Source: a virus
Lineage: Duplodnaviria > Heunggongvirae > Uroviricota > Caudoviricetes
Strand: one strand, 5' to 3'
Length of the DNA stretch: 15,868 nt
Virus record (IMG/VR): IMGVR_UViG_2609460059_000001
Shown here: in pieces, positions 2,554 through 15,868 of the stretch
Numbering within the stretch: the stretch's first letter is position 1
Layout of the letters: each line of letters begins with the position of its first letter
Notes under the pieces: generated by a model
Seen by the model: the letters and a program-made list of their open reading frames with translations, nothing else
What the model was told of the DNA's origin: nothing
Database searches by the model: none
Made by a program: the position numbers and the translations under genes

Positions 2554-5500
2554 ATGGCAGAGCAAACCTCGCGTCTCGCAATAATTATTGATAGCACTGG
2601 AGCGAAAAATAATGCTGACAATCTGACCTCCTCATTAGTCAAAATGACGCAGGCTGGGAAAACTGCTGCAAATAGCGCAGGGAAAGTGACTAAGGCAACA
2701 GAAGATGAGAAGAACGCGCTCGCAAAATTAAAAGCAGCTATTGATCCAGTTGGTGCCGCAATTGATACTGTCGGTCGACGCTATTCTGAATTAAAGAAAT
2801 TTTTCGATAAAGGGCTTATTGATAAAGAAGAATATGAATTTCTTGTCCGTAAACTTAATGAAACCACAGAGGAATTGAGCGGGGTTGCGCAAGCGCAGAG
2901 AGAAGCCGAGAAGGCCGGAAAACTTGCTGCCGCCCAGCAGGAAGCGCAGGCTCAGGCCTTTCAAAGAATGCTGGACAAGATCGACCCTCTGGCTGCGGCG
3001 CTAAGAAATCTTGAACAACAGCAGGATGAACTTAATGCTGCGTTTGCATCCGGGAAAATAAATGGTTCTCAGTTTGAGAATTATAGCCGAAAAATACAGG
3101 AAACACGGCGAGAGCTTACCGGAGAGGCTCAGGCAGAGCGAGAAGCAGCAAAAGCGCATGATGAACAGGTTGTTGCTTTGCAACGTCTGATTGCTCAACT
3201 TGACCCTGTCGGAACTGCTTTTAACCGCCTGACAGAGCAGCAAAAGCAACTCAGCGAAGCAAAAGCCAAGGGGATGCTTTCTCCTGAAATGTATGAGGAG
3301 CTTTCAGGAAAACTTCGTGCTATGCGGAGTGAGCTTGAGGCTACTCAATCGCAACTAAGCAAAACCGGAATGTCGGCAAAACAAACGGCTTTTGCTATGC
3401 GCATGTTGCCTGCACAAATGACGGATATTGTTGTTGGGTTGTCCACTGGTCAGTCGCCATTTATGGTGTTAATGCAGCAGGGCGGCCAGCTAAAAGATAT
3501 GTTCGGTGGGATTGGCCCGGCAATCAAAGGTGTAGGTTCTTATGTGCTGGGATTAATTAATCCTTTTACCCTGGCCGCAGCAGCCGTTGGCGTCTTAGGG
3601 CTGGCTTACTATAAAGGCTCTCAGGAGCAGAACGAATTTAATAAATCTCTTATTCTTACCGGAAATCAGTTGGGGACAACCAGCGGGCAATTGGCCGATA
3701 TAGCTCAACGTGCCGGGAATGCGGCTGATTCGACAACTGGCGCTGCGGCGGCAGTATTAAACCAGCTTGTGCGTTCGGGAAAGGTAGCGAGCAGTTCGCT
3801 GGAGCAAGTGACGACAGCGATAGTAAAAACGAGCGAAGTAACAGGAATATCAACCGAACAACTGGTTAATGACTTCAATGAAATTGCAAAGGATCCTGTC
3901 AGTGCTATATCAAAACTTAATGATCAGTACCATTTTCTGACACTTGCGACTTATAACCAAATTAAGGCGCTACAGGATGAAGGGAACCAGCAGGAGGCCG
4001 CCCGCATTGCGACAGAAGCATACTCATCCTCAATGATCCAGCGCACCAACCAGATTAAAGAAAATCTTGGTTATCTTGAGACTGCATGGAAAGCTGTCGC
4101 AGACTCCGCAAAATGGGCATGGGATTCCATGCTGGATATTGGCCGTGAGGCCTCCCTTGATCAAAAAATCTCAGATGTTCTCCGTCAAATTGATGAAATA
4201 GAAAAAAATACCCGACCCGGAGTTTTCGGGTTAGGTGGCATTGGAGATGGCGGAGCTCAAAATAAAAAGCTGGCACGATTAAAGCAGCAATTGGGCGTAC
4301 TTCAAGCAGAAAAAATTGCTCAGGACGTACTAAATTCATCAATAAACGATTACAACAAGCGACAACAGGAAGGAATTGAACTCAGACAGAGAGCAGATGC
4401 TTTTTCAAAACAATATCAGACCCGGGAGCAGCAGAGAGCTAGTGAACTTGCAAAACTGGAAAAGCTAAAGAATCAGTATTCAAAGGAAGAATATAATAAT
4501 CTTATCGCTCAAATAAATGAGCGTTACGAAGATCCAAAGCAACCAAAGGCGAAAGGTTATTCGGATGATGCTGCCCAACGAATGATTGATCATCTGAATC
4601 AACAGAATGCGTTACTAAGTTCACAAGCTGAATTGACCGTTAAATTAAGTTCCTCTGAACAGGAACTGGTTAAGTGGCGTCAGCAGATTGCCGACCTGGA
4701 GTCACGACCGTCATCGAAATTAACCCAAGAGCAGAAATCACTTCTCTTACACCGGGAAGAAATAACCGCGTTGATGGAGAAAAATGTTGCGATTGAAAAA
4801 AATAACAGGCTAATCAAAGAATCCGCCGAAATAGCCGCATGGCGTGATTCATTGCAGGCTTCGATTGATAATCGTCAGCAGGGGTATGATATTCAGATTG
4901 CTGGTTATGGGGTTGGCGATAAAAATCAGCAACGCCAGCAGGAATTACTGCGGATTGAACGTGAATATAACAATCAGCGTCTGCAACTTGAACGTGACTA
5001 TGCAGATAAATCCCGTGGAATGTCAAATCATGTTTTTCAGGAGAAAATGCAGGCTCTGAATGATGCTCTGGAACGAGAAAAAGAAATTGTCAGCCAGAAA
5101 AACGAGCAGCTCGATATTCTGGCAGGAGACTGGATTAGTGGTGCCTCCCAAGGATTCAATAACTGGCTGGATGACACTAAGGATATCGGTGCGCAGATAA
5201 AATCAACCACGACTCAGATGTTTGATGGGATGACCGATGCGCTAGGTGATTTTGTCACGACAGGCAAGGCAAATTTTCGTTCTTTCGCTACTTCCGTGAT
5301 TTCGGATCTTAGTCGAATTGCATTAAAGGCTTCAATTACTGGGATTTTCGACAGCATTAGTAACAGTTCTTCTGGGGGTATTTTAGGAACTATCGGGAGT
5401 GCTATTAGTAAATTTATTCCGAATGCAAAGGGCGGTGTTTATGAGTCTCCGTCATTGAGTACATATTCGAACGGTATTTATGACTCCCCGCAATTTTTTG

Positions 5501-5787
5501 CTTTTGCAAAAGGAGCTGGTGTTTTTGGTGAGGCTGGACCGGAAGCTATTATGCCATTAACGCGAACTTCCGATGGTTCTCTTGGTGTCAGAGCTATTAA
5601 TAGTAAAAGTGGTAATGGAGGCAGAGATATTACTTATGCCCCTGTATACCAAATCACTATTCAAAATGACGGCCAGAATGGAGAGATTGGTCCTCAGGCA
5701 ATAAAAGCACTTATGGGGATGGTTGATCAGCGGGTGCAGGGCGCTCTGTTAAATATGCGACGTGATGGAGGAATGTTAAGTGGCTAA
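2554..5787 (+). CDS. tail tape measure protein (gpH-like)
   Basis: 1077 aa. The N-terminal third is coiled-coil with three ~60-aa repeats carrying IDPVGAA / IDPLAAA / LDPVGTA motifs. A hydrophobic segment follows ([13 protein letters not shown]...GVLGLAYY). The C-terminus ([32 protein letters not shown]) is of lambda H type. RBS CAGGAG is 8 nt upstream of the ATG. Confidence 0.92.
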
Positions 5788-6118
5788 TACGGAAGAATTT
5801 TACTGGTTACCAGAGGATGGAATGAAAACAGAAAATAAGCCATCGATAAAAACTGTAAGATTTGGCGATGGTTATGAACAACGAAGCCCAAACGGACTTA
5901 ATCATTCTCTGCGTGTTTTTACCTGTGATTTCAGGGTTGAGGCGAATGAACGTAATTCATTTGAACTGTTTCTGGCTCGGCATGGAGGCTATAAATCTTT
6001 TTTTTGGCGCCCGCCGGGTATTAACAGAAAAATCAGAGTGGTGTGTCGAACGTGGTCAGCGACAGAACATATCACCTATACCGATTTTTCATGTCAGTTT
6101 GACGAAGTGGTGATCTGA
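5780..6118 (+). CDS. M: minor tail protein M (lambda gpM homologue)
   Basis: Contains [17 protein letters not shown] and [12 protein letters not shown], closely matching lambda M as recalled. The GTG at 5780 has GGAGG 8 nt upstream and overlaps the H stop by 8 nt. An in-frame ATG at 5822 is an alternative start. The stop overlaps the L start (TGATG). Confidence 0.85.
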
Positions 6119-6816
6119 TGCAGGACATACGACAGGAAACACTGAATGAATGTATCCGTGCGGAGCAGTCGGCCAGCGTGGTGCTCTGGGAAATTGATCT
6201 GACAGAGGTCGGTGGGGAGCGTTACTTTTTCTGCAATGAGCAGAACGAAAAAGGTGAACCGGTTACCTGGCAGGGGCGAAAGTATCAGGCGTACCCCATT
6301 CAGGGAAGCGGCTTTGAGATGAACGGTAAGGGCAGCAGCGCACGTCCCACACTTAAGGTATCAAACCTGCACGGCATGGTCACCGGGATGGCGGAAGATC
6401 TGCAGAGTCTGGTCGGCGGAACGGTGGTCCGGCGTAAGGTTTACGCCCGTTTTCTGGATGCGGTGAACTTCGTCAACGGAAACAGCGAAGCCGATCCGGA
6501 GCAGGAGGTGATCAGCCGCTGGCGCATCGAGCAGTGCAGCGAACTGAACGCGGTTAGCGCGGCCTTTGTGCTGTCCACGCCGACGGAAACGGATGGTGCT
6601 GTTTTTCCGGGGCGCATCATGCTGGCCAACACCTGCACCTGGACCTATCGCGGTGATGAGTGCGGTTATAGCGGTCCGGCGGTCGCGGATGAATATGACC
6701 AGCCGACGTCCGATATCACGAAGGATAAATGCAGCAAATGCCTGAGTGGCTGTAAGTTCCGCAATAACGTCGGCAACTTTGGCGGCTTCCTTTCCATTAA
6801 CAAACTTTCGCAGTAA
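6118..6816 (+). CDS. L: minor tail protein L (lambda gpL homologue)
   Basis: 232 aa. The sequence [12 protein letters not shown]...CSKCLSGCKFRNNVGNFGGFLSINKLSQ is nearly identical to lambda L as recalled, including the C-terminal Cys cluster. Same length as lambda L. Confidence 0.92.
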   Translation: MQDIRQETLNECIRAEQSASVVLWEIDLTEVGGERYFFCNEQNEKGEPVTWQGRKYQAYPIQGSGFEMNGKGSSARPTLKVSNLHGMVTGMAEDLQSLVGGTVVRRKVYARFLDAVNFVNGNSEADPEQEVISRWRIEQCSELNAVSAAFVLSTPTETDGAVFPGRIMLANTCTWTYRGDECGYSGPAVADEYDQPTSDITKDKCSKCLSGCKFRNNVGNFGGFLSINKLSQ

Positions 6817-6821
6817 ATCCC

Positions 6822-7565
6822 ATGACAGAGACAGAATCAGCGATTCTGGCGCACGCCCGGCGATGTGCGCCAGCGGAGTCGTGCGGCTTCGTGGTGAGAA
6901 CGCCGGAGGGGGAAAGATATTTTCCCTGCGTGAATATTTCCGGTGAGCCGGAGGAGTATTTCCGGATGGCTCCGGAGGACTGGCTGCAGGCAGAGATGCA
7001 GGGTGAGATTGTGGCGCTGGTCCACAGCCACCCCGGTGGTCTGCCCTGGCTGAGTGAGGCCGACCGGCGGCTGCAGGTGCAGAGTGATTTGCCGTGGTGG
7101 CTGGTCTGCCGCGGGGCGATTCATAAGTTCCGCTGTGTGCCGCATCTCACCGGGCGGCGCTTTGAGCACGGGGTGACGGACTGTTACACGCTGTTCCGGG
7201 ACGCTTACCATCTGGCGGGAATTGAGATGCCGGATTTTCATCGCGGGGATGACTGGTGGCGTAACGGCCAGAATCTCTATCTTGACAATATGGAGGCGAC
7301 TCCTTTTTACCGTGCCGCACTGACAGAGGCGCAGCCGGGCGATGTGCTGCTGTGCTGCTTTGGTTCATCGGTGCCGAATCATGCCGCCATTTACTGCGGC
7401 GACGGCGAGCTGCTGCACCATATTCCTGAACAACTGAGCAAACGAGAGAGGTATACCGACAAATGGCAGCGACGCACACACTCCCTCTGGCGTCACCGGG
7501 CATGGCACGCATCTGCCTTTACGGGGATTTGCAACGATTTGGCCCCCGCATCGACCTTCGTGTGA
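6822..7565 (+). CDS. K: tail tip assembly protein K (JAMM/MPN plus NlpC/P60 domains)
   Basis: JAMM motif HSHPGGLPWLSEAD (HxHx7Sx2D) at 7023-7064 with candidate upstream Glu residues. Downstream Cys/His (DCYTLF..., HAAIYCGDGELLHH) fit an NlpC/P60 fold. The ATG at 6822 is 5 nt after the L stop. Lambda's annotated 199-aa K corresponds to the internal Met at 6966, but that start would cut into the JAMM domain, so 6822 is preferred. Confidence 0.85.
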   Translation: MTETESAILAHARRCAPAESCGFVVRTPEGERYFPCVNISGEPEEYFRMAPEDWLQAEMQGEIVALVHSHPGGLPWLSEADRRLQVQSDLPWWLVCRGAIHKFRCVPHLTGRRFEHGVTDCYTLFRDAYHLAGIEMPDFHRGDDWWRNGQNLYLDNMEATPFYRAALTEAQPGDVLLCCFGSSVPNHAAIYCGDGELLHHIPEQLSKRERYTDKWQRRTHSLWRHRAWHASAFTGICNDLAPASTFV

Positions 7566-8110
7566 AAACGGGAGCCGAAGCTATCCGGGCGCTGGCCACG
7601 CAGCTCCCGGCGTTTCGTCAGAAACTGAATGAGGGCTGGTATCAGGTGCGCATTGCCGGGCGTGATGCAGGCGAAAACGAATTATCTGCCCGTCTTAATG
7701 AGCCGCTGGCAAATGGTGCCGTGATCCACATCGTACCGCGTCTGGCGGGTGCCAAAAGTGGCGGTGTTTTTCAGGCAGTGCTGGGGGCTGCGCTGATTGC
7801 GGTGGCATGGTGGAACCCTGTGGGCTGGCTGGGTGCCGCGGCTGTATCGGGTATGTATGCGGCAGGGGCCAGTATGATCCTGGGCGGTGTGGCGCAGATG
7901 CTGGCACCGAAAGCCAGAACTCCCCGCACACAGACAACGGATAACGGCAAACAGAACACGTATTTCTCCTCACTGGATAACATGGTTGCCCAGGGGAATG
8001 TTCTGCCCGTTCTGTACGGTGAAATGCGCGTGGGGTCACGCGTGGTATCTCAGGAGATCAGCACGGCAGACGAAGGGGATGGTGGTCAGGTTGTGGTGAT
8101 TGGTCGATGA
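7463..8110 (+). CDS. I: tail tip assembly protein I (lambda gpI homologue)
   Basis: 215 aa beginning MAATHTLPLASPGMARICLYGDLQRFG and ending NVLPVLYGEMRVGSRVVSQEISTADEGDGGQVVVIGR, lambda I-like. It overlaps the 3' end of K by 103 nt in a different frame, the same arrangement I recall for lambda. Confidence 0.85.
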   Translation: MAATHTLPLASPGMARICLYGDLQRFGPRIDLRVKTGAEAIRALATQLPAFRQKLNEGWYQVRIAGRDAGENELSARLNEPLANGAVIHIVPRLAGAKSGGVFQAVLGAALIAVAWWNPVGWLGAAAVSGMYAAGASMILGGVAQMLAPKARTPRTQTTDNGKQNTYFSSLDNMVAQGNVLPVLYGEMRVGSRVVSQEISTADEGDGGQVVVIGR

Positions 8111-8128
8111 TGCAAAATATTTTATGTG

Positions 8129-8152
8129 AAACCGCCTCCGGGCGGTTTTGTC
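8129..8152 (+). terminator. terminator-like hairpin in the I-J intergenic gap
   Basis: GAAACCGCC, TCCG loop, GGCGGTTT, then TGTCGTTT. GC-rich stem with a U-rich tail, 20 nt upstream of the J start. Possible attenuator. Confidence 0.4.
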
Positions 8153-8170
8153 GTTTATGGAGCATGACGA

Positions 8171-11100
8171 ATGGGTAAAGGCAGCAGTAAGGGGCATACC
8201 CCGCGCGAAGCGAAGGACAACCTGAAGTCCACGCAGTTGCTGAGTGTGATCGATGCCATCAGCGAAGGGCCGATTGAAGGTCCGGGGGATGGATTAAAAA
8301 GCGTGCTGCTGAACAGTACGCCGGTGCTGGACAGTGAGGGGAATACCAATATCTCCGGCGTCACGGTGGTGTTCCGGGCAGGTGAGCAGGAGCAGACACC
8401 GCCGGAGGGATTTGAATCCTCCGGCTCCGAGACGGTGCTGGGTACGGAAGTGAAATATGACACGCCGATCACCCGGACCATCACGTCGGCAAACATTGAC
8501 CGTCTGCGTTTTACCTTCGGTGTGCAGGCACTGGTGGAAACCACCTCAAAGGGTGACCGGAATCCGTCGGAAGTCCGCCTGCTGGTTCAGATACAACGTA
8601 ACGGTGGCTGGGTGACGGAAAAAGACATTACCATTAAGGGCAAAACCACGTCGCAGTATCTGGCCTCGGTGGTGGTGGATAACCTGCCGCCGCGCCCGTT
8701 TAATATCCGGATGCGCAGGATGACGCCGGACAGCACCACAGACCAGCTGCAGAACAAAACGCTCTGGTCGTCATACACCGAAATCATCGATGTGAAACAG
8801 TGCTACCCGAACACGGCACTGGTCGGCGTACAGGTGGATTCGGAGCAGTTCGGCAGCCAGCAGGTGAGCCGTAATTATCATCTTCGCGGGCGCATTCTGC
8901 AGGTGCCGTCGAACTATAACCCGCAGACGCGGCAATACAGCGGTATCTGGGACGGAACGTTTAAGCCAGCATACAGCAACAACATGGCCTGGTGTCTGTG
9001 GGATATGCTGACCCACCCGCGCTACGGCATGGGTAAACGTCTTGGTGCGGCAGATGTGGATAAATGGGCGCTGTACGTCATCGGCCAGAATTGCGACCAG
9101 TCGGTGCCGGACGGCTTTGGTGGCACGGAGCCGCGCATCACCTGTAACGCTTACCTGACTACGCAGCGTAAAGCGTGGGATGTTCTCAGCGATTTCTGCT
9201 CGGCGATGCGCTGTATGCCGGTATGGAACGGGCAGACGCTGACGTTCGTGCAGGACCGACCGTCGGATAAGGTGTGGACCTATAACCGCAGTAATGTGGT
9301 GATGCCGGATGATGGCGCGCCATTCCGCTACAGCTTCAGCGCCCTGAAGGACCGCCATAATGCCGTTGAGGTGAACTGGATTGACCCGAATAACGGCTGG
9401 GAGACGGCGACAGAGCTTGTTGAAGATACGCAGGCCATTGCCCGTTACGGTCGTAATGTCACGAAGATGGATGCCTTTGGCTGTACCAGCCGGGGGCAGG
9501 CACACCGCGCCGGGCTGTGGCTGATTAAAACGGAACTGCTGGAGACGCAGACCGTGGATTTCAGCGTGGGTGCTGAAGGGCTTCGCCATGTACCGGGCGA
9601 TGTCATTGAAATCTGCGATGATGACTATGCCGGTATCAGCATCGGCGGGCGCGTGCTGGCGGTAAACAGCCAGACCCGGACGCTGACGCTCGACCGTGAA
9701 ATCACTCTGCCATCCTCCGGTACCACGCTGATAAGCCTGGTTGACGGAAGTGGCAATCCGGTCAGCGTGGAGGTTCAGTCCGTCACCGACGGCGTGAAGG
9801 TGAAAGTGAGCCGTGTTCCTGACGGCGTTGCTGAATACAGCGTGTGGGGGCTGAAGCTGCCGACGCTGCGCCAGCGCCTGTTCCGCTGCGTGAGTATCCG
9901 TGAGAACGACGACGGCACGTATGCCATCACCGCCGTGCAGCATGTACCGGAAAAAGAAGCCATCGTGGATAACGGGGCGCACTTTGACGGCGACCAGAGC
10001 GGCACGGTGAATGGTGTCACGCCGCCAGCGGTGCAGCACCTGACCGCCGAAGTCACCGCAGACAGCGGGGAATATCAGGTGCTGGCGCGCTGGGACACGC
10101 CGAAGGTGGTGAAGGGCGTGAGCTTCCTGCTCCGTCTGACCGTAACAGCGGATGACGGCAGTGAGCGGCTGGTCAGCACGGCCCGGACGACGGAAACCAC
10201 ATACCGCTTCAGGCAGCTGGCGCTGGGAAATTACAGGCTGACAGTCCGGGCGGTAAATGCATGGGGACAGCAGGGCGATCCTGCATCGGTATGGTTCCGG
10301 ATCGCCGCACCGGCAGCGCCGTCGCGGATTGAGCTGACGCCGGGCTATTTTCAGATAACCGCCACGCCGCATCTTGCCGTTTATGACCCGACGGTACAGT
10401 TTGAGTTCTGGTTCTCGGAAAAGCGGATTACCGATATCAGGCAGGTTGAAACCACAGCCCGCTATCTTGGTACGGCGCTGTACTGGATAGCCGCCAGTAT
10501 CAATATCAAACCGGGCCATGATTATTACTTTTATATCCGCAGTGTGAACACCGTTGGCAAATCGGCATTCGTGGAGGCCGTCGGTCGGGCGAGCGATGAT
10601 GCGGAAGGTTACCTGGATTTTTTCAAAGGCAAGATAACCGAATCCCATCTCGGCAAGGAGCTGCTGGAAAAAGTCGAGCTGACGGAGGATAACGCCAGCA
10701 GACTGGAGGAGTTTTCGAAAGAGTGGAAGGACGCCAACGATAAGTGGAATGCCATGTGGGCTGTCAAAATTGAGCAGACCAAAGACGGCAAACATTATGT
10801 CGCGGGTATTGGCCTCAGCATGGAGGACACGGAGGAAGGCAAACTGAGTCAGTTTCTGGTTGCCGCTAACCGTATCGCATTTATTGACCCGGCAAACGGG
10901 AATGAAACGCCGATGTTTGTGGCGCAGGGCAATCAGATATTCATGAACGACGTGTTCCTGAAGCGCCTGACGGCCCCCACCATTACCAGTGGTGGCAGTC
11001 CTCCGGTATTTTCCCTGACATCAGACGGAAAGCTGACCGCTAAAAATGCGGATATCAGTGGCAGTGTGAATGCGAACTCAGGAACGCTCAACAATGTCAC

Positions 11101-11584
11101 GATTAACCAGAACTGTACGATTAAGGGCATGCTGGAGGCGACCCAGGTCAGAGGGGATTTCGTTAAAGCTGTATCAAAAGCCTTCCCGAAAAAAGTCGGT
11201 ACGTGGGGTAACACGGAAACACCAGACGGTACGGTTACAGTCACCATCAGCGATGATCATAACTTTGACCGCCAGATTATTATTCCGCCCATTATTTTTA
11301 ACGGTATAGCGTATGACGATCCGGGGAGCGGAAATAACCCGGGAGGCACGCGATACACGGGTTATGGTTTTGAAGTTCGCAAAAACGGCATATTAATCGC
11401 ATCCAGAGAAACTAAAGGGGCCATTCCCGGTAGTTACAGTGCAGTTATTGATATGCCTAGTGGTGGTGGTAGCGTCACTCTGGAGTTTAAGATTTTCCAG
11501 AAAGGCAATCAGGGGGCAGGCAATATCACCGACTGTACGGTGATTGTGACCAAAAAAGCGGCTTCCGGCATCAGTATTCGTTGA
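8171..11584 (+). CDS. J: central tail fibre / host specificity protein J
   Basis: 1137 aa. The N-terminus [38 protein letters not shown] is lambda J-like, as are internal regions (fibronectin-III-like segments, [17 protein letters not shown]). GGAG lies 8 nt upstream of the ATG. The last ~150 codons are visibly lower in GC. Confidence 0.95.
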
Positions 11585-11606
11585 AATATTTATAACCCCA
11601 ATAAAG

Positions 11607-11630
11607 GGCGTCAGGAATGACGCCTTTTTT
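11607..11630 (+). terminator. rho-independent terminator after J
   Basis: GGCGTCA, GGAA loop, TGACGCC, followed by TTTTTT (11625-11630). Confidence 0.8.
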
Positions 11631-11654
11631 ATTGCAGAAAAGCGAGAGGTAATT

Positions 11655-12254
11655 ATGCGTAAAGTTTGTGCAGCAATTTTGTCCGCAGCCATTTGTCTGG
11701 CCGTATCCGGTGCGCCTGCATGGGCGTCTGAACATCAGTCCACGCTGAGCGCGGGGTATCTTCATGCCTCGACGAACGTCCCCGGCAGTGATGATCTGAA
11801 CGGGATTAACGTGAAATACCGTTATGAGTTTACGGATACGTTGGGGCTGGTGACGTCATTCAGCTATGCAGGAGACAAGAATCGCCAGCTGACCCGTTAC
11901 AGCGATACCCGCTGGCATGAAGATTCCGTTCGTAACCGCTGGTTCAGCGTAATGGCGGGGCCGTCTGTGCGCGTGAATGAATGGTTCAGCGCGTATGCGA
12001 TGGCGGGTGTGGCTTACAGCCGTGTGTCGACTTTCTCCGGGGATTATCTCCGCGTAACTGACAACAAGGGGAAAACGCACGATGTGCTGACCGGAAGTGA
12101 TGACGGTCGCCACAGCAACACGTCTCTGGCGTGGGGAGCTGGCGTGCAGTTTAACCCGACCGAATCCGTGGCCATTGATATTGCTTATGAAGGCTCCGGC
12201 AGTGGCGACTGGCGCACTGACGGTTTCATCGTGGGTGTCGGTTATAAGTTCTGA
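11655..12254 (+). CDS. lom: Lom outer membrane protein (Ail/Lom/OmpX family beta-barrel)
   Basis: 199 aa with an N-terminal signal peptide (MRKVCAAILSAAICLAVSGAPAWA). The C-terminus IAYEGSGSGDWRTDGFIVGVGYKF matches lambda Lom as recalled, as does the internal GINVKYRYE motif. The gene sits between J and stf as in lambda. Confidence 0.9.
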   Translation: MRKVCAAILSAAICLAVSGAPAWASEHQSTLSAGYLHASTNVPGSDDLNGINVKYRYEFTDTLGLVTSFSYAGDKNRQLTRYSDTRWHEDSVRNRWFSVMAGPSVRVNEWFSAYAMAGVAYSRVSTFSGDYLRVTDNKGKTHDVLTGSDDGRHSNTSLAWGAGVQFNPTESVAIDIAYEGSGSGDWRTDGFIVGVGYKF

Positions 12255-12281
12255 TTAGCCAGGTAACACAGTGTTATGACA

Positions 12282-12307
12282 GCCCGCCGGTTCAGGCGGG
12301 CTTTTTT
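12282..12307 (+). terminator. rho-independent terminator after lom
   Basis: GCCCGCC, GGTTCA loop, GGCGGGC, followed by TTTTTT (12302-12307). Confidence 0.8.
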
Positions 12308-12318
12308 GTGGAGTGGAT

Positions 12319-14697
12319 ATGGCAGCAGTAAAAATCTCAGGTGTGCTGAAAGATGGTGCGGGAAAACCAATACAGAACTGCACTATTCAACTGAAGGCAA
12401 AGCGTAACAGCACCACGGTACTGGTGAACACGGTGGCCTCTGAAAATCCGGATGAAGCCGGACGTTACAGCATGGATGTTGAGTATGGCCAGTACAGCGT
12501 CACCCTGCTGGTTGAAGGTTTTCCGCCTTCACATGCCGGGACCATTACCGTCTATGAAGGTTCCAGACCAGGTACGCTGAATGATTTTCTCGGCGCCATG
12601 ACGGAAGATGATGTCATGCCGGAGGCATTGCGTCGTTTTGAGGAAATGGTGGAAGAAGCGGCACGCAACGCTGAAGCCGCCTCTCAGAGCGCAGCGGCGG
12701 CAAAGAAATCCGAAACTGCAGCGGCATCATCGAAGAACGCGGCGAAAACCTCAGAAACGAATGCAGCTAACAGCGCACAGGCGGCAGCGACCTCACAGAC
12801 TGCATCGGCAAACTCCGCGACAGCAGCCAAAAAATCAGAAACCAACGCGAAAAACAGCGAGACAGCCGCAAAGACGAGCGAAACCAACGCAAAGTCCAGC
12901 CAGACGGCAGCGAAGACCAGCGAAACGAATGCCAAAGCCAGTGAAACTGCGGCAAAAAACAGCCAGGTTGCAGCAGCCCAAAGCGAGAGCGCGGCAGCCG
13001 GTTCTGCGACTTCAGCAGCTGGATCAGCAACTGCTGCGGCTAACAGCCAGAAAGCTGCGAAGACGAGTGAAACTAACGCAAAGTCCAGCCAGACGGCAGC
13101 GAAGACCAGCGAAACGAATGCCAAAGCCAGTGAAACTGCGGCGAAAAACAGTCAGGATGCTGCAGCCCAAAGCGAGAGTGCCGCAGCTGGTTCTGCAAGT
13201 GCGGCGGCTTCTTCTGCCACTGCATCAGCCAACAGTCAAAAAGCTGCAAAAACCAGTGAAACCAACGCAAAGGCGAGCGAGACTGCGGCGGCTAACTCGG
13301 CGAAAGCATCCGCTGCAAGCCAGACGGCTGCAAAAGCAAGTGAAGACGCAGCCAGAGAGTATGCAAGCCAGGCTGCGGAGCCGTATAAACAAGTTTTGCA
13401 GCCGCTTCCAGATGTGTGGATACCGTTTAACGATTCACTGGATATGATTACGGGCTTTTCGCCATCATATAAAAAGATTGTTATTGGTGATGATGAAATA
13501 ACGATGCCTGGTGACAAGGTTGTTAAGTTTAAACGCGCATCGAAAGCAACCTATATTAATAAATCTGGTGTACTGACAGAGGCTGCCATTGACGAGCCGC
13601 GATTTGAACGTGATGGCCTGCTTATTGAGGGGCAAAGAACTAATCTTCTGCTTAATTCAACAAATCCATCTAAATGGAATAAGTCAGGCAATCTGGAACT
13701 CACAGAAATATCCACGGATTATTTTAATTTTACTTATGGGAGATTTACTGTAAAAGATACTCTTATTGATCAGACAAGTGCGATTAATATCGTAACGGTT
13801 TCTGGCAGTAAAGGATTTGATGTCACAGGTGATGAAAAATATGTGACCATTTCATGCCGTGTCAGAAGTGATGTTGAAAATATAAGGTGTCGTTTAAGAT
13901 TTGAACATCATGATGGTTCTACTTACACTTTTTTGGGAGATGCTTACCTCAATTTATCAACACTTGTAATTGATAAGACTGGTGGTGCAGCAAATCGTAT
14001 TATTGCAAAGGCTGTAAAAGATGAGGCTACTGGTTGGATTTTCTATCAGGCTACAATTAATGCACTAGATACAGAGAGCATGATTGGTGCGATGGTTCAA
14101 TATGCTCCAGTAAAAGGTTCAGGCACAGCATCTGGAGACTATCTGGATATCGCAACTCCACAAGTGGAAGGTGGATCAAGTGCTTCGTCATTTATTGTAA
14201 CTGATATAACTGCAAGCACTCGCGCAAGCGATATGGTGACAGTCCCAATCAAGAATAACCTTTATAATCTTCCTTTTACGGTTCTTTGTGAGGTACATAA
14301 GAACTGGTATAAAACGCCAAATGCAGCGCCACGTGTTTTTGATACCGGTGGTCATCAAACCGGAGCGGCTATTATTCTTGGCTTCGGTCGTTCAACAGAT
14401 TATGACGGATTTCCTTATTGCGATATTGGAGGAGCTAACAGACGGGTAAACGAAAACGCATTGCTTGAAAAAATGGTTATGGGGATGCGTGTAAAGTCAG
14501 ATCAGTCTACGTGCTCAGTAAGTAACGGGCGTATATCCAGCGAAACAAAAGCCACATGGTCCTATATTCAGAACACCGCAATTATCCGTATTGGAGGCCA
14601 GACTACAGCCGGGTTACGTCATTTATTTGGTCATGTCAGGAATTTCAGAATATGGCACAAGGCATTGACTGATGCTCAGGTGGGGGAGTTAATCTAA
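12319..14697 (+). CDS. stf: side tail fibre protein (Stf-like) with a non-lambda distal domain
   Basis: The N-terminus MAAVKISGVLKDGAGKPIQNCTIQLKAKRNSTTV...GQYSVTLLVEGFPPSHAGTITVYEG is lambda Stf-like. The shaft is built of Ala/Ser/Thr-rich heptad repeats (xSETNAx). The distal ~430 aa is AT-rich and ends GHVRNFRIWHKALTDAQVGELI, reminiscent of the C-terminal signature of Laminin_G_3 / ConA-like lectin domains. The ATG at 12319 has GGAG 5 nt upstream; the longest ORF starts at GTG 12313. Confidence 0.85.
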   Translation: MAAVKISGVLKDGAGKPIQNCTIQLKAKRNSTTVLVNTVASENPDEAGRYSMDVEYGQYSVTLLVEGFPPSHAGTITVYEGSRPGTLNDFLGAMTEDDVMPEALRRFEEMVEEAARNAEAASQSAAAAKKSETAAASSKNAAKTSETNAANSAQAAATSQTASANSATAAKKSETNAKNSETAAKTSETNAKSSQTAAKTSETNAKASETAAKNSQVAAAQSESAAAGSATSAAGSATAAANSQKAAKTSETNAKSSQTAAKTSETNAKASETAAKNSQDAAAQSESAAAGSASAAASSATASANSQKAAKTSETNAKASETAAANSAKASAASQTAAKASEDAAREYASQAAEPYKQVLQPLPDVWIPFNDSLDMITGFSPSYKKIVIGDDEITMPGDKVVKFKRASKATYINKSGVLTEAAIDEPRFERDGLLIEGQRTNLLLNSTNPSKWNKSGNLELTEISTDYFNFTYGRFTVKDTLIDQTSAINIVTVSGSKGFDVTGDEKYVTISCRVRSDVENIRCRLRFEHHDGSTYTFLGDAYLNLSTLVIDKTGGAANRIIAKAVKDEATGWIFYQATINALDTESMIGAMVQYAPVKGSGTASGDYLDIATPQVEGGSSASSFIVTDITASTRASDMVTVPIKNNLYNLPFTVLCEVHKNWYKTPNAAPRVFDTGGHQTGAAIILGFGRSTDYDGFPYCDIGGANRRVNENALLEKMVMGMRVKSDQSTCSVSNGRISSETKATWSYIQNTAIIRIGGQTTAGLRHLFGHVRNFRIWHKALTDAQVGELI
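12871..13248 (+). repeat. in-frame tandem duplication of a 189-bp (63-aa) unit inside the stf shaft, itself built of degenerate 21/42-bp sub-repeats
   Basis: Two copies at 189-bp offset. The first ~75 bp are near-identical (aagacgag(c/t)gaaac(c/t)aacgcaaagtccagccagacggcagcgaagaccagcgaaacgaatgccaaagccagtgaaactgcggc) and the rest has scattered substitutions. The protein copies read KTSETNAKSSQTAAKTSETNAKASETAAKNSQ(V/D)AAAQSESAAAGSA... Confidence 0.85.
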
Positions 14698-14978
14698 TGA
14701 AAGATTTAACACTCAAATTTGTCGACAGGGCCGACTTTTCGGCCTTTATGGAGAGTATCGGCTATTATGATGATGAGTCGATGCAGGATGATATTCTTAT
14801 TGACGTGATAGGTAACGTGTACAAAGAAACCGGAGAACTTACCGAAGATGGCGAGCCGGTATGTGTTAAGGAAGACGGATATTTTGTAAACGTGCGCATC
14901 ATTAATGATGCAAAAAAATCGTCAATATTCGATGAATACGTGGTTGCTGTTGAGCATCAACTTCGTGGCTGGATGTGA
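14697..14978 (+). CDS. hypothetical acidic 93-aa protein, translationally coupled to stf (possible fibre chaperone or accessory protein)
   Basis: The ATG overlaps the stf stop (TAATG) and GGGGGAG lies 8-9 nt upstream. Low GC like the stf distal domain. Very acidic (D/E-rich). No recognisable family; it occupies the position of tfa but does not resemble lambda Tfa. Confidence 0.5.
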   Translation: MKDLTLKFVDRADFSAFMESIGYYDDESMQDDILIDVIGNVYKETGELTEDGEPVCVKEDGYFVNVRIINDAKKSSIFDEYVVAVEHQLRGWM

Positions 14979-14987
14979 GGAAGAAAA

Positions 14988-15671
14988 ATGGCTACATCGA
15001 CAGTAATTCCTGAAGACATCAAAACGCTAAAATCCGACGTTAGCAAATTAAAAAACGATCAAGGAAGCTACGCAACAAAATCATATGTAGACAGCAAAGA
15101 TGAAACCGTTGGTGACTGGTCTGCTTCATGGTATCAGCAGGTATTGCCAACTAGCGGAGCTATATTTGGGAGAAAACTCCGCTCAACTCACAGGACGGCA
15201 GGTGTTGAGGATGCGTATTGCGAACTATACCTCAAAAAATGGATAGACAGTCCAGGTAACGCAATGGCGCGCCTTAACCTGAACGATAACGGGACAAACA
15301 TTTGCTGGGACTTTACCAACCTTTATGGCGGTACGATGATTTTTCCCGGTGACAGCGGATACCTCAAAATGGGTAACTGCCTTATGTCATACAGTAAGCG
15401 TGGAAGTAACGCGCTTATTAAATTTGATTACACCGACACATTACAGATCAAATATGCCAATCATGGGTCAACCATGACATTAAACACACAGGGAACCGCT
15501 TATGCTGGTGTTACTGCTCAATTGTGGGGCAACTCCAGCCGTCCTGTTGTTTATGAAGTCGGTGTTGATGGTGGCGCTTATATGTTCTATGCGCAGAAAA
15601 CTACCAGCAATACCTACGAATTAACGGTTAACGGCGCGTGCAATGCAAGTGCATCAAACCCGGTTGTATGA
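14988..15671 (+). CDS. hypothetical 227-aa protein, possible tail-fibre-associated adhesin or moron
   Basis: RBS GAGGAAG 4 nt upstream of the ATG. The N-terminus has a short coiled-coil-like stretch (PEDIKTLKSDVSKLKND) followed by a Gly/Asn/Thr/Tyr-rich region typical of beta-rich receptor-binding domains. Low GC. The last 7 codons and the stop lie inside the left arm of the palindrome. Confidence 0.5.
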   Translation: MATSTVIPEDIKTLKSDVSKLKNDQGSYATKSYVDSKDETVGDWSASWYQQVLPTSGAIFGRKLRSTHRTAGVEDAYCELYLKKWIDSPGNAMARLNLNDNGTNICWDFTNLYGGTMIFPGDSGYLKMGNCLMSYSKRGSNALIKFDYTDTLQIKYANHGSTMTLNTQGTAYAGVTAQLWGNSSRPVVYEVGVDGGAYMFYAQKTTSNTYELTVNGACNASASNPVV

Positions 15672-15868
15672 AGATCACTGGCGTCCAATGGAAGTCGCTT
15701 TTGGTCAGCAAGGTTACAGCGAATATTTTGACGCATAAAACTGTCAAAATATTCGCTGTAACCTTGCTGACCAAAAGCGACTTCCATTGGACGCCAGTGA
15801 TCTTCATACAACCGGGTTTGATGCTCTGGTTCGAGGCCCATCAGAATAAAATTGCGCACCAGATCGGC
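15614..15868 (-). CDS. possible 3' end of a convergent minus-strand gene, open to the window edge; real extent uncertain because it reads through the palindrome
   Basis: The minus-strand frame is open from the window edge to the stop at 15614. Across the right arm it encodes protein-like sequence (...ADLVRNFILMGLEPEHQTRLYEDHWRPMEVAFGQQGYSEYFD...). The part read across the left arm is just the inverted copy and may not be genuine coding sequence. Confidence 0.25.
   Translation of the reverse strand, partial: ADLVRNFILMGLEPEHQTRLYEDHWRPMEVAFGQQGYSEYFDSFMRQNIRCNLADQKRLPLDASDLHTTGFDALALHAPLTVNS
15651..15824. repeat. perfect inverted repeat / palindrome: 82-bp arms (15651-15732 and 15743-15824) around a 10-bp non-symmetric spacer (15733-15742, gcataaaact)
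   Basis: Checked base by base: every position i in the left arm is complementary to position 31475-i in the right arm, with no mismatches. The symmetry breaks at 15650/15825. Confidence 0.95.

Follow-up and report, generated by a model that had tools for sequence, protein, structure and literature searches.

A mosaic side tail fibre gene with a lectin-like distal module in a lambda-like prophage of Escherichia coli

The stf locus and its recombination junction

The DNA analysed here (IMG/VR virus record IMGVR_UViG_2609460059_000001; 15,868 nucleotides, hereafter the window) is, from its open reading frames (ORFs) and their Pfam matches, the tail-tip end of a lambda-like Escherichia coli prophage. 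The genes follow one another in the order tape measure, M, L, K, I, J (8171-11584), lom (11655-12254), a side tail fibre gene resembling lambda stf, an ORF of 93 codons and the beginning of a second fibre gene. We found that the stf-like gene is a recombinant, in which a lambda-type anchor and shaft (residues 1-363) is fused at the sequence LQ/PLPDVWIPF (the slash marks the junction) to a foreign, AT-rich module of 431 residues. Over 13400-14697, the window and a prophage of E. coli L1PEag1, annotated with the same gene order, are 99.9% identical, and an IMG/VR contig matches the module at 100% at the protein level. The stf product also matched PHROG 1419 ('tail protein') with 1481.6 bits (residues 4-794 on positions 1-793 of a profile of 793); the module family is already catalogued under this number, and the protein is a further member of it.

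The N-terminal part of the protein is of the lambda (Ur-lambda) Stf type. The gene occupies the same place as lambda stf, after J and lom, and its product carries the PF08400 (phage_tail_N) anchor, matched at residues 5-134 with 223.9 bits (E 7.3e-67) and about 85% identical to that of lambda over the first 120 residues. BLASTP aligned residues 5-345 with residues 2-342 of lambda orf-401 at 59% identity, both proteins having an Ala/Ser/Thr-rich shaft up to about residue 345. The tandem repeats of the shaft have periods of 21, 42 and 189 nt, corresponding to 7, 14 and 63 residues. At the DNA level, the lom-stf region of lambda is 83.7% identical over 12127-12671 and the similarity ends at about 12671-12767, so that the shaft is lambda-like in kind and no close copy. 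The C-terminal halves of the two proteins are, in contrast, unrelated. BLASTP found nothing in the stf product that could be aligned with lambda orf-314, the His-rich distal half, no HxH motif occurs anywhere in the 794 residues, and a tblastn search with Tfa had no match in either the window or the complete L1PEag1 locus; the downstream ORFs of the window had no Pfam match and so none to Caudo_TAP. Instead of a gp37-like tip with its Tfa, there is the module followed by a small ORF. As to the shaft itself, a 189-nt (63-residue) tandem duplication lies at 12853-13290 (2.3 copies, 84% identity), and shaft length varies among alleles, the same module being carried on fibres of 583-812 residues.

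Base composition changes abruptly at the end of the shaft. In 200-nt windows, G+C was 0.54-0.58 over 12500-13400 and 0.34-0.45 over 13400-14700, and the largest step, calculated with 400 nt on each side, fell at 13382 (chi-square on GC counts, p = 1.6e-11). The codons for residues 1-363 had a GC content of 0.549 and a GC content at third positions (GC3) of 0.504, against 0.410 and 0.309 for residues 364-794; GC3 was 0.22 in the central jelly roll of the module, and GC was 0.562 in the shaft. At codon positions 1 and 2, GC fell from 0.572 to 0.461 across the junction. No upstream window of 1293 nt was as AT-rich as the module (upstream minimum 0.424), and the AT-rich block extended past 14697 through the next two genes (GC 0.42-0.45). 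A GC3 drop of 0.20 indicates that more is involved than an Ala-rich shaft being followed by a globular domain. The step has nevertheless to be read with the caveat that the window is GC-mosaic elsewhere too: within 2554-12254, the tape measure gene (GC 0.45, GC3 0.39) and M (GC 0.42, GC3 0.35) are AT-rich, whereas L, K, I, J and lom are GC-rich (GC 0.56-0.60, GC3 0.60-0.69).

Similarity to DNA of foreign phages begins at the same place. Over 13397-14720 the window is 91.6% identical to the virulent T5-like Salmonella phage FGS017, whose anchor and shaft are unrelated; similarity starts at 13399 for JenP1, EC100 and the locus L052, within 13397-13399 for 1H12, and at 13408 for KurtStettler. The onset for Drexlerviridae is earlier, at 13357, because the last turn of the shaft is also common to them. 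Module DNA is 70-79% identical to that of Drexlerviridae and Queuovirinae. We aligned seven fibre proteins from four phage groups and added further loci, including that of a Dhillonvirus. The same junction peptide, LQ/P followed by L or F and then PDVWIPFNDSLDM, was found behind unrelated shafts in lambdoid, T5-like, Drexlerviridae, Queuovirinae and Dhillonvirus fibres. Other lambdoid stf genes have the same 5′ part and different distal alleles, and lambdoid allele swaps also break right past the conserved neck of the module, at about 13608-13668. The near-identity to the module of a virulent T5-like Salmonella phage documents a recent exchange of putative receptor-binding parts between temperate and virulent phages.

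An earlier interpretation made from the letters of this DNA alone (the sequence-only reading) had proposed a lambda Stf-like N-terminus with an Ala/Ser/Thr heptad shaft, a switch to AT-rich DNA near 13400 and the horizontal replacement of the receptor-binding tip, the His-rich motifs of the gp37 type being absent. The anchor match, the 7-, 14- and 63-residue periodicity and the lack of HxH, orf-314 and Tfa similarity agree with the first and last of these. The GC profile is not uniform, its step lying at 13382-13400, and with foreign-phage similarity starting at 13397-13408 the breakpoint had been placed correctly within a few bases. The replacement itself is borne out by the identity to FGS017; what that reading missed is the context of the swap, a cassette with a small ORF and a second fibre. 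Coordinates of the features are collected in Table 1.

Table 1. Features of the side tail fibre locus (positions in the window; residues refer to the stf product unless stated otherwise)
Feature	Position	Strand	Basis or remark
stf-like side tail fibre gene, 794 aa	12313..14697	+	GTG at 12313; RefSeq uses ATG at 12319
Virion-anchor domain, lambda Stf type (residues ~5-134)	12313..12714	+	PF08400 phage_tail_N
Ala/Ser/Thr/Glu/Lys-rich repetitive shaft (residues 135-363)	12715..13401	+	orf-401 alignment, tandem repeats, GC 0.562
Recombination junction, VLQ/PLPDVWIPF (residues 363/364)	13397..13402	+	DNA similarity onset
Conserved neck (residues 364-436)	13402..13620	+	column entropy
Jelly roll, RcGTA head-spike-fibre type, ConA-like with variable loops (residues 437-638)	13621..14226	+	
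C-terminal LamG (Laminin_G_3-type) domain (residues 639-794)	14227..14694	+	
93-aa ORF	14697..14978	+	PHROG 1361; start overlaps stf stop codon
Second tail fibre gene, N-terminal part (346 aa in intact loci)	14988..15654	+	PHROG 4563
Second-fibre N-terminal peptide MATSTVIPEDIKTLKS	14988..15035	+	putative docking peptide
Near-perfect inverted repeat, 85 nt	15648..15827	.	arms 15648-15732 and 15743-15827, 99% complementary, 10-nt loop

Two jelly rolls behind a conserved neck

The module consists of two jelly rolls of the concanavalin A (ConA) type behind a conserved neck. Mean column entropy was 0.56 bits in the neck against about 1.5 bits in the rest of the module, and many distant relatives have only the first ~90 module residues in common. 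The central jelly roll matched the NCBIfam profile NF048003 ('phage head spike fiber domain', GTA_spike_fiber) at residues 437-638 on positions 1-181 of 182 with 58.3 bits (E 1.4e-15; curated cutoff 36 bits), and an independent phmmer match was obtained with the chain sequence of Rcc01080 from the gene transfer agent RcGTA (E 1.5e-4). In structure predictions, which were made on single chains, this jelly roll was the confident part, with a predicted local distance difference test score (pLDDT) mostly above 80, and the neck had low confidence as a monomer. The C-terminal domain is of the LamG type: Pfam PF13385 (Laminin_G_3) was above its gathering threshold of 27.6 bits in full-length homologues from AKFV33 (36.2 bits, profile 5-149), P0121 (31.1 bits) and P0155 (30.1 bits), and 21 of the 38 family members matched it at E <= 0.01. 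The fold is a beta-sandwich of the LamG/ConA-like kind. Alleles differ strongly in both jelly rolls (33-99% identity) but keep the framework motifs and the neck. Neither Pfam nor NCBIfam assigned the module to an enzyme family.

The LamG/ConA-like distal domain of the sequence-only reading, and the C-terminal peptide GHVRNFRIWHKALTDAQVGELI quoted for it, were thus recovered, but not as a single LamG domain: the neck and a larger jelly roll of the RcGTA type come first. The Laminin_G_3 search which it suggested succeeded with the homologues and fell short with the protein itself. The family is large; when its members are clustered at 50% identity, 2154 clusters fall within E <= 1e-3 and 421 within E <= 1e-10. 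Of 5426 complete E. coli genomes, 1732 contain parts of the module DNA and 177 contain at least 80% of it. Stand-alone module proteins of ~416 residues are common in the protein database, and some RefSeq E. coli genomes (matches H27, H32, H36) annotate the gene as two adjacent coding sequences, 'phage head spike fiber domain-containing protein' and 'phage tail protein'; both may be frameshifted or truncated copies, or calls of an internal start.

The only characterised homologue of the module is Rcc01080. Homology covers residues ~406-653 and includes the motifs RASxATY, PRF[ED], LL[IL]E, xQxExG and TRAxD. Rcc01080 is a two-lobed, beta-rich, lectin-like protein which binds capsular polysaccharide, and its fluorescent fusion bound cells better when the capsule was present (PMC10218006). 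It is carried as a flexible single subunit on the capsid pentamer, held by its own N-terminal peptide, and only residues 2-10 of the protein were resolved (PMC7296036). In the present protein, however, the domain is fused to the end of a tail fibre shaft and followed by a LamG domain. A sequence search of the PDB returned only Rcc01080 with these resolved residues 2-10, hence no experimental structure of the shared domain. By predicted fold, the module was most similar to the baseplate wedge protein gp46 of Pseudomonas phage Pa193 (PDB 9b45) and its E217 homologue (8env); gp46 differs in being a myovirus baseplate protein with only 13-17% sequence identity. The models also resembled carbohydrate-binding modules.

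The small ORF and the second fibre gene

The module is followed directly, with an overlapping or abutting stop codon, by an ORF of ~92 codons in 20 of 20 named phage or prophage loci with the junction peptide. Of some 75 IMG/VR loci whose sequence extends beyond the module, nearly all have this ORF as well; in the few that do not, the fibre ORF is shortened. In the window, the product matched PHROG 1361 over its full length (E 1.7e-46). Neither Pfam nor NCBIfam matched it, it was not similar to lambda Tfa, and the homologue search returned relatives that were all at least 84% identical and all named 'hypothetical'. The product is a candidate cognate chaperone or accessory subunit. The tip had been read from the sequence as one that does not depend on Tfa. 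Tfa is indeed missing, but since a dedicated small ORF always comes after the module, independence from Tfa does not amount to independence from any helper.

In most loci the next gene after the small ORF encodes a second fibre of 224-589 residues. The part present in the window matched PHROG 4563 ('tail fiber protein') over residues 1-224 of 346. The intact copy in L1PEag1 carries a Peptidase_S74 domain (PF13884) at residues 227-278 (E 6.5e-14), and this domain was found in all eight second fibres scanned, seven above the Pfam cutoff and that of swan01 slightly below. The N-terminal motif M-[AVT]-T-x-T-x-I-P-x-D-I-x-x-L-K is kept across the second fibres of five phage groups, one Dhillonvirus having Q for the final K. 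Beyond this motif, the second fibres diverge completely, and lambdoid allele swaps break at 15031, the end of the N-terminal peptide. From residue ~27 or ~49 onward, the body of the T5-type second fibre is homologous to proteins of DT57C, phiKT, Kuraviruses and others, whereas residues 1-26 are shared, among the records listed, only by phages carrying the module (for EC104, this is presumed from its relative EC100).

The exchanged unit is therefore a cassette of two or three genes, namely the module, the ~92-codon ORF and an optional second fibre. It occurs in lambdoid, Drexlerviridae, Queuovirinae, Dhillonvirus and T5-like phages; in the T5-like AKFV33, FGS017, EC100 and mar004NP2, the module, the small ORF and the second fibre lie within the ltf locus. 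The module-bearing fibre of mar004NP2 has been confirmed as a structural protein of the virion by mass spectrometry (PMC6563131). About 28 IMG/VR prophage loci and the phages 1H12 and ev017 have the module and the small ORF without the second fibre. There the small ORF leads straight to a conserved gene for a 96-residue membrane protein that elsewhere comes after the second fibre; one further prophage ends directly past the small ORF. In these loci, lacking a second fibre, the module is the end of the fibre. Where the second fibre is present, the module may not be the sole or the outermost receptor-binding element. The rV5-like phage nomo (L004, 788-5559) has a Vequintavirus fibre of 1479 residues that ends in the same two jelly rolls, 48% identical from module residue ~19 on and without PLPDVWIPF; a homologue of the ~92-codon ORF is present as well, indicating that the pair serves fibres of myoviruses too.

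Three side observations concern the cassette. A hydrophobic ORF of 95-97 codons (MDITxxLHALCAVA...; 87-95% identity, no Pfam match) closes lambdoid cassettes with or without a second fibre (18672-18962 in L1PEag1, locus L001; 5802-6095 in L009; 6108-6395 in L075; 4527-4820 in L093). In PhiR49_1 (L009), fragments matching the C-terminal ~40 residues of lambda Tfa at 83-87% identity lie downstream of the cassette (6115-6231 and 7151-7237) and are a possible relic of a displaced stf-tfa pair. Such relics were also looked for as a scar of the replacement in the window and in the L1PEag1 locus, and none was found. In L1PEag1, the genes cdtA, cdtB and cdtC of a type IV cytolethal distending toxin (19475-21575) begin ~0.5 kb past the fibre cassette, followed by an alpha/beta hydrolase gene and an omptin protease gene; the cassette thus adjoins virulence cargo.

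Two adjacent fibre genes are also known from the T5-like phages DT57C and DT571/2, whose LtfA and LtfB form branched fibres (PMC4728585, PMC10713586); AKFV33 has been listed as a phage with two ltf genes (PMC4728585). As in intact copies of our locus, the distal of the two genes encodes a Peptidase_S74 domain and no virion anchor. However, DT57C LtfA has no module and ends in an S74 domain of its own, there is no small ORF between the two genes, and the equivalent distal body is covalently continuous with LtfA. The N-termini differ as well: that of LtfB resembles phiEco32 gp15 (MSRPLMPKSG / MARELMPKSG), whereas the second fibre here starts with MATSTVIPEDIKTLK (MxTxTxIPxDIxxLK). At E < 1, neither phiEco32 gp14 nor DT57C LtfA was similar to the module. 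A docking pair of the gp14/gp15 type found in DT57C was rejected, as there is neither a gp14-like region in the module nor a gp15-like N-terminus here. The lateral fibre loci of Drexlerviridae, Dhillonvirus and Queuovirinae (among them those of the BASEL phages KurtStettler and PeterMerian) carry the module at 62-78% amino-acid identity, the small ORF and the second fibre, but their anchors and shafts are not of the lambda type. The BASEL records annotate the second fibre as 'putative lateral tail fiber chaperone', a label due to the S74 domain. Such loci have been described as conserved at the 5′ end only and hypervariable further on, with O-antigen as the presumed target (PMC8594841).

At the end of the window, the sequence departs from intact second-fibre copies at about 15655, directly before the Peptidase_S74 domain (cut at residue 227), and runs into the inverted repeat. 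The DNA of the repeat is a fragment of a DUF262 gene located elsewhere in E. coli chromosomes, and its join to the fibre gene was found in no complete E. coli genome. These data indicate that the foreign palindrome is probably an assembly artefact at the contig end, and that a second fibre of 227 residues is probably not real. Among the neighbouring genes, J is 95.8% identical to lambda J over 8171-11140, and the similarity is gone in the final ~445 nt, which encode the C-terminal part; the central fibre tip thus also appears, from its sequence, to be a swapped allele. Long ORFs overlap the shaft in other frames or on the opposite strand (12608-13447 on the plus strand and 12684-13517 on the minus strand; 279 and 146 codons and others), and an ORF of 674 codons lies antisense to J (8771-10795, minus strand). 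They are most likely by-products of biased composition, like lambda orf206b.

Proposed function and alternatives

We favour, with moderate confidence, an explanation in which the recombinant Stf carries a glycan-binding head, a small protein partner and, where present, a docked second fibre. The two lectin-like domains would bind a surface glycan (O-antigen, lipopolysaccharide core or capsule) in a reversible first contact with the host, the variable loops of the jelly rolls setting the specificity. A carbohydrate receptor, which the sequence-only reading had also expected, is a reasonable and plausible proposal by analogy, given the fold and the RcGTA homologue. The small protein would be the dedicated folding or assembly partner of the module, in the place that Tfa has for lambda Stf. 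The N-terminal ~16-26 residues of the second fibre would dock non-covalently, either on the small protein or on the conserved part of the module; since these phage groups have only the module and the small ORF in common, one of these is the simplest docking site for the conserved peptide. The result would be a branched fibre with two specificities, as the comparison with LtfA and LtfB of T5-like phages suggests.

Several points weigh against this explanation. Neither a binding nor a structural or genetic experiment on the module in any coliphage was found in the literature searched, and the literature on the Cronobacter Drexlerviridae fibre (a different, ICA-type one), the tail-fibre atlas, lambda Stf engineering and Hf4s gave no receptor for it. 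LamG/ConA-like folds also mediate protein-protein contacts, so that the fold is no proof of glycan binding. PF13385 matched the protein itself with only 17.2 bits (E 0.006), below the gathering threshold, and over the last 49 residues only (profile 102-150). The structure models are monomeric, with a pLDDT of 72-73 and the neck unmodelled; the module sits at the end of a presumably trimeric shaft, the RcGTA homologue being a monomer. It is only co-occurrence and conservation that suggest a docking of the second fibre on the module, and in the window the second fibre is cut at residue 227 by what looks like a contig-end artefact. In nomo, the small-ORF homologue has 110 residues and 36% identity, and the gene that follows is without the docking motif. 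A neck segment (..DDEITMPGDK.. versus ..DNVVQVASDK..) appeared linked to the presence of the second fibre, perfectly so in 74 loci; these represent few lineages, and 1H12 has the 'plus' motif without a second fibre, so this co-variation was not relied on.

More tentatively, as an idea that we would not yet back, the module together with its small ORF may be a portable 'branching joint': a glycan-binding, lectin-like head that would also capture, through a peptide of ~16-26 residues, an exchangeable second fibre acting as its own chaperone. Lambdoid prophages, which are temperate, and virulent phages of the T5-like, T1-like and Queuovirinae groups would then draw on one pool of receptor-binding parts. 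The joint would be related by evolution to the head-spike fibre of a gene transfer agent, which is likewise held by an N-terminal peptide.

The strongest alternative, which we consider unlikely, is that the module is mainly a structural joint without receptor specificity of its own and that the second fibre it carries is the true receptor binder. This would account for the neck being the most conserved part of the module and for the confinement of the second-fibre N-terminal peptide to module-bearing phages; moreover, the best structural match, Pa193 gp46, is a baseplate protein with a tail-fibre attachment loop (PMC11456595), and LtfA of DT57C carries the equivalent distal fibre body as a direct fusion. 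The many loci that have the module and the small ORF without a second fibre are, however, hard to reconcile with a mere joint, and the variability of the jelly rolls is expected of a receptor-binding surface and not of a passive one; the characterised homologue, in addition, binds capsule (PMC10218006).

Recognition of a protein receptor in the outer membrane instead of a glycan is less probable still. The Stf of Ur-lambda targets OmpC (10.1101/2022.09.30.509847), and LamG, pentraxin and BoNT-Hc-type domains, which were among the matches, also bind proteins. But the closest characterised relative binds a polysaccharide (PMC10218006), and O-antigen is regarded as the target of lateral fibres in the siphophage groups with this module (PMC8594841, PMC4728585). 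It is very improbable that the jelly rolls are enzymatic and degrade surface polysaccharide like a tailspike: matches to GH16-, PL7- or PL18-like glycanases and lyases ranked under those to non-catalytic lectins, carbohydrate-binding modules and LamG domains, Pfam and NCBIfam gave no enzyme family, and the invariant motifs lie at the start and the end of the jelly roll and are common to the non-enzymatic RcGTA fibre, which suggests a framework role. Finally, the view that nothing was replaced and that GC shifts only because an Ala-rich shaft gives way to a globular domain in an anciently contiguous gene, for which the fall at codon positions 1 and 2 speaks as amino-acid composition predicts it, is refuted by the fall in GC3 and by the identity to FGS017 from the exact junction on, and the different distal alleles behind the common 5′ part of other lambdoid stf genes argue against it too; we give it practically no chance.

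The structural and evolutionary interpretation that the sequence-only reading gave of the mosaic stf is correct, and a glycan-binding head remains our preferred, plausible reading of its function. As biology, the mosaicism is of the expected kind and no surprise, since mosaic lateral fibres, constant at the 5′ end and exchangeable distally, have been well documented (PMC8594841, PMC4728585). Side tail fibres determine which strains a phage, or a phage-derived delivery particle, reaches. In this respect, LQ/PLPDVWIPF provides an exact, naturally validated splice point for a foreign head on a lambda shaft, and the head brings with it an obligatory small partner gene and, as an optional plug-in, a second fibre. 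The splice point and the cassette are usable for the engineering of lambda-based vectors and for the prediction of prophage host range, which, with cdt genes in the closest complete prophage, bears on the spread of the toxin. The testable hypothesis to be carried forward is that of a portable system made of the module, the small ORF and a docking peptide, from which phages as different as lambdoids and T5-like viruses may build their fibres.

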